From positions 125,922,001 to 125,986,000 of the forward strand of contig NC_058386.1 of assembly GCF_018350175.1 (NCBI RefSeq): a DNA stretch of 64,000 nt, in the 5' to 3' direction. This document shows, one piece after another, positions 62,198 through 64,000 of this stretch. Below the pieces are notes generated by a model, which had not been told where the DNA came from, did no database searches, and was given only the letters and a program-made list of their open reading frames with translations. The stretch is from Felis catus (Eukaryota). The position numbers were made by a program, and so were the translations under genes. The number at the start of each line of letters is the position of its first letter. Position 1 is the first letter of the stretch.

Positions 62198-62633
62198 AGT
62201 TACGGGAAAGGCCGCGGTGGGGGAAAAGTCACCAAGCGGGAAGGGAGCCCCCCAATTCCTCTCACACACACCCCCTTTCGTCTAAGGTAGCTCTCACGGA
62301 GAAGCGGTTCCTCACACAGCGGTGGACGGTTCCATGGAGGCCGCCATCTTAACTACCCTCCTTCCCTTCGGCTCTTCCCCTTCTTCTAGCTCACCCCGTC
62401 TCTTCAAGAGCCTCCCGAAACTTTCGAGCGCCTAGCCCCGAGAAGCCGGAGGCCGCCGAGTCCCGCCGCNNNNNNNNNNNNNNNNNNNNNNNNNNNNNNN
62501 NNNNNNNNNNNNNNNNNNNNNNNNNNNNNNNNNNNNNNNNNNNNNNNNNNNNNNNNNNNNNNNNNNNNNNNNNNNNNNNNNNNNNNNNNNNNNNNNNNNN
62601 NNNNNNNNNNNNNNNNNNNNNNNNNNNNNNNNN
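49835..62633. other. Four N-gaps: 49835-49974, 53320-53476, 61927-62078, 62470-62633
   Basis: Runs of n in the sequence. Confidence 1.
52340..53190 (+). mobile_element. Ancient L1ME-like relic in HCFC1 intron 6
   Basis: cacaaactggggaaactatttg…tagaaaagagacgggcaaag…aaatgcaaacttaaacc…cctacctctaggcttttaccc…atacacttgcac. Confidence 0.6.
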
Positions 62634-64000
62634 TGGCCGGCTTCCGGGGCGGGTGGAAAGGAGCCACAAGCGCCGCGGTTGTCCCAGCCCCGCCGGCGCT
62701 CACACCACAATTGTGGGAGCCGCCATCTTGAGACCGTCCCGCTTCCCCGCCCAGCGCTTAGTGCAGCCGCCGCTCCCGAAACAGCCTCGACACTCGTGAA
62801 GGACAAAGGCGCGCCGGAGGCCAGTGGAACGAACTCGAATTCTCGGGGGCTGGTCGGAGACTCGCGCCGTACAGCTTGTGAGGTCTCGAACCTCTCCCCT
62901 GAGTCCGCCTCTGCTGCTCAGGCTGCGCCTGCCGCCCTGGGAGCCGCCATCTTGAGACTAACTCCCCCTTCCCCCCTATTCTCTTCCTCCTGGGTCAGTT
63001 CTTCCACTGCAAACCAAACGCAAGGCAGCGTCCGATCCTCGCTTCCCTCTTTATGACTCCTTCCCACAGGAGCCGCTCCAAAGAGCCAGAGTTAGGCCCC
63101 GGAGTGGCAACTGTACGGCAGGAGGAGCGGTAACGGCAGGGCGCTCATGCCTCCTCCCTGGGAGCCGCCATCTTGTGTGAAGAAGTAACAACTAAACATG
63201 GCGGCAACGGCGGTCGGGCGAGGGGGCGGAGTCGGGCTACGTCACTGTTTCCCCCCCCCACCCCCCGCCCTCGCACGGCTTCTCAGAGCCAAGGCCTCTT
63301 AAAGGACCCCCGCGCTGCCCCGGGGCGAGGGCCCAGGTCCACCGCGCGCCTAGCTAGGGCTCAGGCCGCTCTCGGGTCAGGCGCAGGCGCGCCCAGCCCC
63401 GCGGCCCACCCCCTCCCCCCCCATTGCGCCCTCACGCCTCCGCCCTGGGAGCCGCCATCTTGCCACTTCCCTTCGCCCGGCCGTCCACGGGCGTCAATAG
63501 CGACTTTCAGCACAAAACAAAGATGGCGGTTGAGGCCTCTGGTGAATGCCCGGATGAGGATGCCTCAAACGAGCTCGGCCCCGCCCCCCCTGGGAACATT
63601 CCCCCGGGTCGTTTAAGGAACACACGCCCGAGGAGTTGCCTTTAACTAGCAGTGGGGACAGGGCATAGGCTGCTGGGGACGGCCGACGGGAAACGTTAGA
63701 GCTGCAGCTCGGGCCGGAGAGTGCACATGTTTCCGCTCCCCACACCCAGGGGCCGCGGGAGAAGCGGCCCAAGACACGCCGCGGGGGGAGTCGGAGGCGG
63801 GGCGAGTGGGCGGTGACGCAGCCGGCTCCCAGGCTCGCCGGCCCCGCCCCCGAGCGCCGGCGCCACCGCCCGCGCTCTAACGAAAGGAGACGCGCCGCGC
63901 GCCCGGGCCCGCTCCCCGTCCCCCGCCCCGCCGGCTGCAGGGCGGGCGGCCAGGCCGGCGGTACCCGAACCGAGCGGGCGGGCGCGGGAGAGCTCCGTGT
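62080..64000. promoter_or_regulatory. HCFC1 CpG-island promoter/5'UTR with seven YY1 motifs (probably bidirectional; TMEM187 side in human)
   Basis: GCCGCCATCTT at 62340, 62719, 62943, 63164, 63451; reverse copies AACATGGCGGC 63195 and AAGATGGCGG 63520; GC boxes near 63825-63950. TMEM187 assignment rests on synteny only. Confidence 0.85.

Follow-up and report, generated by a model that had tools for sequence, protein, structure and literature searches.

The DNA examined here is a 64,000-nt stretch of the Felis catus genome (assembly GCF_018350175.1, contig NC_058386.1, forward-strand positions 125,922,001 to 125,986,000), hereafter the window. Its minus-strand gene is HCFC1, identified by one exon that matches the HCF C-terminal chain 4GO6 (E 1.3e-35) and by a second that matches the HCF-1 repeat peptides 4N3A-C; the 39-residue piece of exon 1 has no PDB match, and the identity of the gene is taken from these other exons. 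The HCFC1 5′ region is a CpG island (GC 0.68, CpG observed/expected 0.87) and carries five copies of AAGATGGCGGC on the HCFC1 sense strand, each of which opens a short ORF closed by TGA and a following G (Table 1). An original prediction for this DNA had described five sense YY1 motifs opening ORFs of 8-11 codons that end in TGAG, and its coordinates and lengths hold. The array is a real, conserved and translated feature, translation being documented for units 3-6 in their human or mouse counterparts.

Table 1. Features of the HCFC1 5′ region, in window coordinates
Feature	Position	Strand	Description
Unit 1	63432..63462	-	Exact 17-nt YY1/TISU element and 8-codon ORF (ATG 63458); last sense codon GCG, stop TGA
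Unit 2	63145..63175	-	Exact 17-nt YY1/TISU element and 8-codon ORF (ATG 63171)
Unit 3	62918..62954	-	Exact 17-nt YY1/TISU element and 10-codon ORF (ATG 62950)
Unit 4	62700..62730	-	Exact 17-nt YY1/TISU element and 8-codon ORF (ATG 62726)
Unit 6 (fifth visible)	62312..62351	-	Diverged element, one mismatch to TISU; 11-codon ORF (ATG 62347)
Non-TISU upstream ORF	63092..63148	-	18 codons; ATG overlaps the unit 2 stop
HCFC1 coding start	62081..62197	-	Visible part of exon 1, from translation; main ATG 62197
YY1 motif, opposite-facing	63195..63205	+	Also gives the HCFC1-strand ATG 63199 (35 codons)
YY1 motif, opposite-facing	63520..63529	+	Faces TMEM187; from motif scan

The visible units are numbered 1, 2, 3, 4 and 6, number 5 being kept for a further unit in the 379-nt gap. 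Their starts lie 287, 221, 224 and 379 nt apart, and GT precedes the stop in three of the five, both in line with the original description. The gaps between visible units measure 191-352 nt, the last stop lies 114 nt above the main ATG, and no upstream ORF (uORF) overlaps the main ORF. A further uORF, unit 5, is listed in human tables at 193 nt downstream of unit 4 and 185 nt upstream of unit 6, and a search of the cat genome itself assigns five exact 17-mers to the HCFC1 cluster, one more than are visible in the window. Unit spacing is mostly 185-225 nt, near a nucleosome repeat, and each of the five visible units (62312-63458) has Ala or Val as its last encoded residue.

Four further sense AUGs lie in the leader, at 63424 (15 codons), 63199 (35), 63148 (18) and 62335 (7; in frame inside unit 6), and outside the units the leader has one ATG in 884 nt. 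The 18-codon uORF (63148-63092) could gain ribosomes by termination-reinitiation at the unit 2 stop. The ATG at 63199 stands in a GCCGCC context and opens an ORF (63199-63092) that has its stop in common with the 18-codon uORF; it is relevant only to transcripts starting above 63199. These four AUGs, the sixth unit, the TISU identity of the motif and the probable reliance on reinitiation were absent from the original prediction.

By their sequence, the repeats above HCFC1 are TISU elements, four of them exact. The consensus SAASATGGCGGC (PMC3177215) is matched with no mismatch in four of the five visible units and with one mismatch in unit 6, and the repeated word extends 5 nt beyond this 12-mer, to a 17-mer that is identical in the four exact visible copies. 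All five units stand on the HCFC1 strand, the sense orientation in which TISU acts. TISU is a YY1 element whose AUG showed no detectable leakage in reporters, with short or longer leaders alike (PMC2518114). In 64% of TISU genes this AUG starts the main protein, as a single copy near the start site (PMC3177215), and the HCFC1 units fall in the other 36%, their AUGs each starting a micro-ORF that is closed ahead of the protein's own start. Initiation at the AUG has been recorded for the counterparts of unit 3 in mouse (harringtonine) and of units 4-6 in human (periodicity). The usual TISU position, +5 to +30 below the transcription start, was compared with annotated 5′ ends only, and these scatter over units 2, 4 and 5. 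As for occupancy, the HCFC1 promoter served as positive control for YY1 chromatin immunoprecipitation (PMC4363909), and promoters are reported to be co-occupied by HCF-1 with ZNF143, THAP11 and YY1 (PMC3668359).

Such a cluster is not expected by chance. At up to three mismatches the 17-mer gives five matches against 0.52 expected, and none of 100 shuffles reaches five. The whole genome (2.43 Gb) holds nine exact 17-mers, five of them in the HCFC1 cluster; the four outside it open 148, 66, 24 and 34 codons, none a short ORF, and two of these resemble ordinary start codons, probably of a WD-repeat gene and a prefoldin-like retrocopy. A mobile or duplicated origin of the array was considered and rejected, as a 651-nt stretch with units 1-3 matches only itself in the genome. 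The exact TISU 12-mer occurs 3,286 times genome-wide, with TGAG 10-28 nt downstream in 216 cases; among the first 100 of these 216 there is no frame bias toward TGAG (29 in frame, 33 and 38 out of frame), and 12 have a length of 8-11 codons. Seventeen of the same 100 have length 28 and point to a recurring family of TISU-like 12-mers in which TGAG always follows out of frame at one distance, probably the 5′ end of a LINE-1 family.

Common ancestry leaves part of the short-ORF pattern unexplained, because units 2 and 4 differ in their spacers (3 of 11 bases alike) and agree in their stop blocks (8 of 8), and because the stops of units 3 and 6, displaced by 6 and 9 nt, are both still in frame (chance one in nine). 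The first of these comparisons also upholds the proposal that the unit is larger than the YY1 core. In a chance model that holds the first 13 nt constant and draws the remainder from the leader’s dinucleotide chain, the probability per unit is 0.099 for 8-11 codons and 0.021 for 8-11 codons with TGAG. The units are paralogous, so these values are not independent trials and are not to be multiplied; assuming just three independent events, ORF length alone gives ~0.001.

Conservation and translation were assessed from published human and mouse tables. A human table lists six HCFC1 uORFs, and the five of these compared with the window have the window lengths (PMC7494916); their coordinate offset to the window is constant at 63168-63169, and 14 of 15 terminal codons are identical, the remaining one being synonymous. 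The mouse counterpart of unit 3 is a 33-nt ORF that lies ~400 bp upstream of where Hcfc1 is annotated to start (PMC3852105), at a distance computed as 403 nt in the window, with 8 of 10 amino acids identical. It carries 143 footprints and a harringtonine start peak that passed the filter, and its start and stop are kept in all seven of the eight species that could be aligned, its length in six (rat, rabbit, human, cow, tenrec and opossum) (PMC3852105). The original prediction had proposed an alignment as a check on stop and unit-length conservation, and for unit 3 this published one shows both to be conserved. In human, unit 3 has the length and last two codons found in the window.

Three translated HCFC1 uORFs of 27, 36 and 36 nt, called by periodicity, appear in a human catalogue and map to units 4, 5 and 6 (PMC4739776). 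Human unit 4 (NM_005334 3:29) starts at nt 3 of the RefSeq transcript and is listed at >3-fold main-ORF efficiency (PMC4739776); it has 8 codons, with one synonymous change in the last codon relative to the window. Human unit 6 (NM_005334 381:416), with length and last codons as in the window, is the only HCFC1 uORF in the human-mouse table, where it has a non-synonymous rate (Ka) of 0 and a synonymous rate (Ks) of 0.129 (PMC4739776). Human unit 5, at 11 codons, is closed by TAA (PMC7494916), so TGAG is not an invariable component of these repeats; its short frame with a different stop, together with the in-frame stop shifts of units 3 and 6, favors a constraint on the reading frame over a fixed DNA word. 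The 18-codon uORF also has a human counterpart, at position 20 of ENST00000310441, with 18 codons and with the last two codons and stop alike. Ribosome profiling, proposed originally as a check, finds the human or mouse counterparts of units 3-6 translated.

Both human and mouse cells show HCFC1 among the targets of DENR-dependent reinitiation. In DENR-knockout HeLa cells HCFC1 belongs to the 517 targets called from 7,788 transcripts (rank 122), with log2 changes of -1.02 in translation efficiency (TE), -0.21 in footprints and +0.75 in mRNA, and 40S subunits stall at the unit 3 stop (rank 8) and the unit 5 stop (rank 277) among 9,982 (PMC7494916). In mouse, Denr knockdown changed Hcfc1 TE by -0.31 (log2; adjusted p 0.003), mRNA by +0.30 and footprints by -0.01 (PMC6547434). 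The marks of a DENR target are present, namely short uORFs ending above the main AUG and both a TE drop and 40S stalling on DENR loss. The last codons favored by DENR are given as ATG, GCG and CTG (PMC7494916); among the window units only unit 1 ends in GCG, and the human stall hits end in GCC (unit 3) and TTG (unit 5). HCFC1R1, a partner of HCF-1, is itself a marked hit in the DENR efficiency table (rank 788), with its main stop at rank 74 (PMC7494916).

The autoregulation envisaged by the original prediction has support from the observation that HCF-1 occupies its own promoter, apparently repressing it: its loss raised the knockout transcript, and negative autoregulation was proposed (PMC6379584). 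The rise in mRNA with near-flat footprints, seen in both DENR data sets, would fit compensation through such feedback.

Annotated 5′ ends differ in the units that they include. That of the older human RefSeq transcript lies 2 nt above the unit 4 AUG, that of Ensembl just inside unit 2, that of MANE above c.-970 and that of mouse RefSeq just inside unit 5, so that leaders with different unit numbers are annotated and the annotated starts do not all lie below the units. Two of the outcomes that the original prediction named as refuting it, starts confined to the region below the units and stops that are not conserved, were not observed, the latter for unit 3. Unit 1 is ~290 nt above the most upstream mappable annotated 5′ end, and no sign of its transcription or translation was found.

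The best-known non-coding disease variant of human HCFC1, tied to intellectual disability, likely also falls in the array. HCFC1 variant X:153971810 A>G, printed as c.970T>C (NM_005334.3), was flagged as uORF-affecting by an ATG-only tool (PMC13087467); we read it as c.-970T>C, as for all 5′ untranslated region rows of that source. The same source files it as a transcription-factor-site change, following the original study, and a uORF tool published in 2026 treats it as an exception that is not translational (PMC13087467). The 5ULTRA supplementary tables are without an HCFC1 row, so the consequence class of the variant is deduced here from its position. A T-to-C change is unable to create an ATG or a stop. 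The T of the unit 2 ATG is c.-973 in the window, with the nearest other Ts at c.-966 and c.-983 and the T of the unit 2 stop (63147) at c.-950, and between unit 6 and 63148 the human offsets differ from those of the window by no more than 1 nt. Because the change makes no ATG or stop and its position fits the unit 2 ATG, human c.-970T>C likely converts this ATG to ACG, a change that would abolish the first uORF start along with the YY1 site. A human unit-6-to-start distance of 147 nt, the value we assume, would make the fit exact. Huang et al. reportedly described the MRX3 variant in 2012 as the loss of one YY1 site that raises HCFC1 expression.

TMEM187 lies head to head with HCFC1, its domain being found on the + strand ~3.7 kb past the end of the window (contig positions 125989743-125990474). 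The two opposite-facing YY1 motifs of the original prediction are present, both face TMEM187, and their ATGs open 34 and 40 codons on the + strand, without the short-ORF pattern. Six runs recorded as RNA, from four studies, contain 0.28-0.96 of the sampled words; their contigs are strandless and the promoter is head to head, and they were given no weight. A long pyrimidine-rich tract on the HCFC1 strand (61700-61925) lies at the start of intron 1, where purine-rich repeat families were seen.

What might such an array do? We lean, without great confidence, toward a dual role as a YY1/TISU array on DNA and RNA, acting as a reinitiation-dependent graded brake on HCF-1 synthesis. On DNA, YY1 would bind each copy and support transcription starts nearby. 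On RNA, a ribosome arriving at a copy would initiate with little leakage, terminate at the early stop and then reinitiate, unit after unit, to arrive at the HCF-1 AUG. Selection would maintain the start, the early stop and the length, leaving the peptide free to drift. A more upstream transcription start would place more reinitiation steps on the message, and the negative control that HCF-1 exerts on its promoter would compensate through a rise in mRNA. An extension of this scheme can be put forward only tentatively, in which start-site choice sets the number of DENR-assisted steps, HCF-1 feedback tunes that choice, and c.-970T>C causes overexpression partly through loss of a cap-proximal uORF start and not only through lost YY1 repression.

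Several observations weigh against the graded brake. Regulated start-site choice is a proposal only. The TE drop on DENR loss comes mostly from the mRNA rise, which isoform shifts or stabilization could also give. Three of five distinct HCFC1 uORF stops are not 40S-stall hits, and two of five has P = 0.066 at the background rate; the higher of these hits, at unit 3, follows GCC, a codon called weakly DENR-dependent (PMC7494916), so that its rank of 8 lies outside the authors’ own codon rule. Under arsenite, HCFC1 has a TE fold of 0.12 (Z -1.53), against 1.3 (Z 8.16) for ATF4 (PMC4383229). In this one condition of one study HCFC1 is thus not resistant and is repressed like most genes, which speaks against a stress switch, and ATF4-like stress induction was rejected on this ground. 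The kept stop of unit 3 weighs less because the whole region is highly conserved (phastCons over unit 3 = 0.97), and the Ka of 0 for unit 6 between human and mouse is a weak hint of peptide constraint. Finally, the functional data all come from human and mouse counterparts, with nothing seen for unit 1 and only indirect data for unit 2.

The strongest competitor, which we consider possible if rather unlikely, is damage limitation: the array would be needed as oriented YY1 sites on DNA, and the early stops would merely permit reinitiation past AUGs that cannot be avoided, their translation being real and non-regulatory. YY1/TISU sites downstream of the start come in one orientation, so that an AUG accompanies the site, and this account predicts conserved stops and drifting peptides just as well as the graded brake does. 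It also agrees with the scarcity of ATGs in the leader outside the units, with the absence of an HCFC1 stress response under arsenite and with main-ORF footprints that are nearly unchanged on DENR loss. However, five or six strong AUGs in series would be a costly arrangement, given that the same promoter also holds sites facing the opposite way, and the 18-codon uORF, which has no YY1 site, is also kept between the window and human. A CRISPR screen of 978 uORFs, in which an HCFC1 uORF was among six hits common to three cell lines (bioRxiv 2025.07.07.663426), points the same way, but carries little weight since cutting also damages promoter DNA.

A composite element acting on DNA only is improbable. 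On this view another protein, such as ZNF143/THAP11, would bind the block after the YY1 core, and the ORFs would be by-products of shared ancestry. The 17-mer, invariant for 5 nt past the TISU 12-mer in the four exact copies, the likeness of the stop blocks of units 2 and 4, and the promoters shared by HCF-1 with ZNF143, THAP11 and YY1 would all suit such an element. Yet the block occurs at three spacings that each preserve the frame, unit 5 in human ends in TAA, and ribosomes do use the ORFs. The adjacent ZNF143 core of the original prediction did not survive either: the best matches to the ZNF143/Staf consensus have 6-7 mismatches of 18, which is the background level (mode 6; 55 of 153 background windows have fewer than 6), and the candidate site was rejected.

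That the units encode a functional micropeptide family beginning MAAP or MAAS is highly unlikely. The ORFs are translated, mouse unit 3 has a coding probability of 0.996 from a support vector machine (PMC3852105) and unit 6 shows no amino-acid change, but the shared N-terminus is imposed by the YY1 motif and the tails differ among units. Unit 3 has accumulated 15 non-synonymous against 7 synonymous changes over six species, with a Ka/Ks to human of 1.18 (PMC3852105), and shows no sign of purifying selection on the peptide; the Ka of unit 6 comes from one species pair and 11 codons. Equally far-fetched is a reading of the GTGAG ends as U1 snRNP sites or cryptic donors, whether to set the direction of transcription or to allow short first exons to be spliced. 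GT does precede three of the five stops, and the promoter is head to head with TMEM187, but the U1-like character once ascribed to these ends fails: all five units have 4-5 mismatches of 9 to the donor consensus and two of them lack GT, on which grounds the site was rejected. In human, moreover, the leader uORFs run collinearly in transcript and genome coordinates, leaving no intron in the annotated leader.

HCFC1 is dosage-sensitive, loss and overexpression both being tied to neurodevelopmental disease. If the c.-970 variant is also a start-codon loss, that case needs re-reading, and the starts and stops of the other units become candidate sites for variants. If the graded brake is true, the array would be a natural repressor made of TISU elements in series, joining promoter architecture, start-site choice and reinitiation in a module of 30-40 nt. 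Its proposed DNA and RNA roles could be pulled apart with mRNA reporters, which makes a clean test possible.

Parts of this system are already known: the YY1 cluster, TISU and DENR reinitiation have been described, and four of the uORFs stand in supplementary catalogues. In 1996 Zoppe et al. reportedly described a 17-nt element that is repeated in the human HCFC1 promoter and binds YY1, and Kim et al. are said to have described clustered YY1 sites in 2006; the published HCFC1 repeats are very probably the same elements as the window units. As far as we know this earlier work through the passages that cite it, it treats the copies as DNA sites only, though it may mention the ATGs. We found no literature that identifies the HCFC1 YY1 repeats as uORF starts in the sources covered, which did not extend to subscription journals.

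The ATF4 and GCN4 leaders work by delayed reinitiation. HCFC1 resembles them in its serial uORFs and in reinitiation to the main ORF, and differs in having no overlapping uORF and in being neither induced nor spared under arsenite. The uORFs served by DENR-MCTS1 are likewise short and in strong context, and HCFC1 stands in the tables of both studies (PMC7494916, Bohlen et al., 2020; PMC6547434, Castelo-Szekely et al., 2019), where it is unnamed in the main texts; it departs from those studies in that its top stop follows GCC and in that its uORF starts are also transcription-factor sites. The closest likeness is to TISU itself (PMC3177215), with which the units share the consensus, the sense orientation and the combination of a YY1 element on DNA with a strong AUG context on RNA. 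TISU, however, is normally present as one copy that starts the protein, whereas HCFC1 has five visible copies, six by human coordinates, in series, each of them a micro-ORF.

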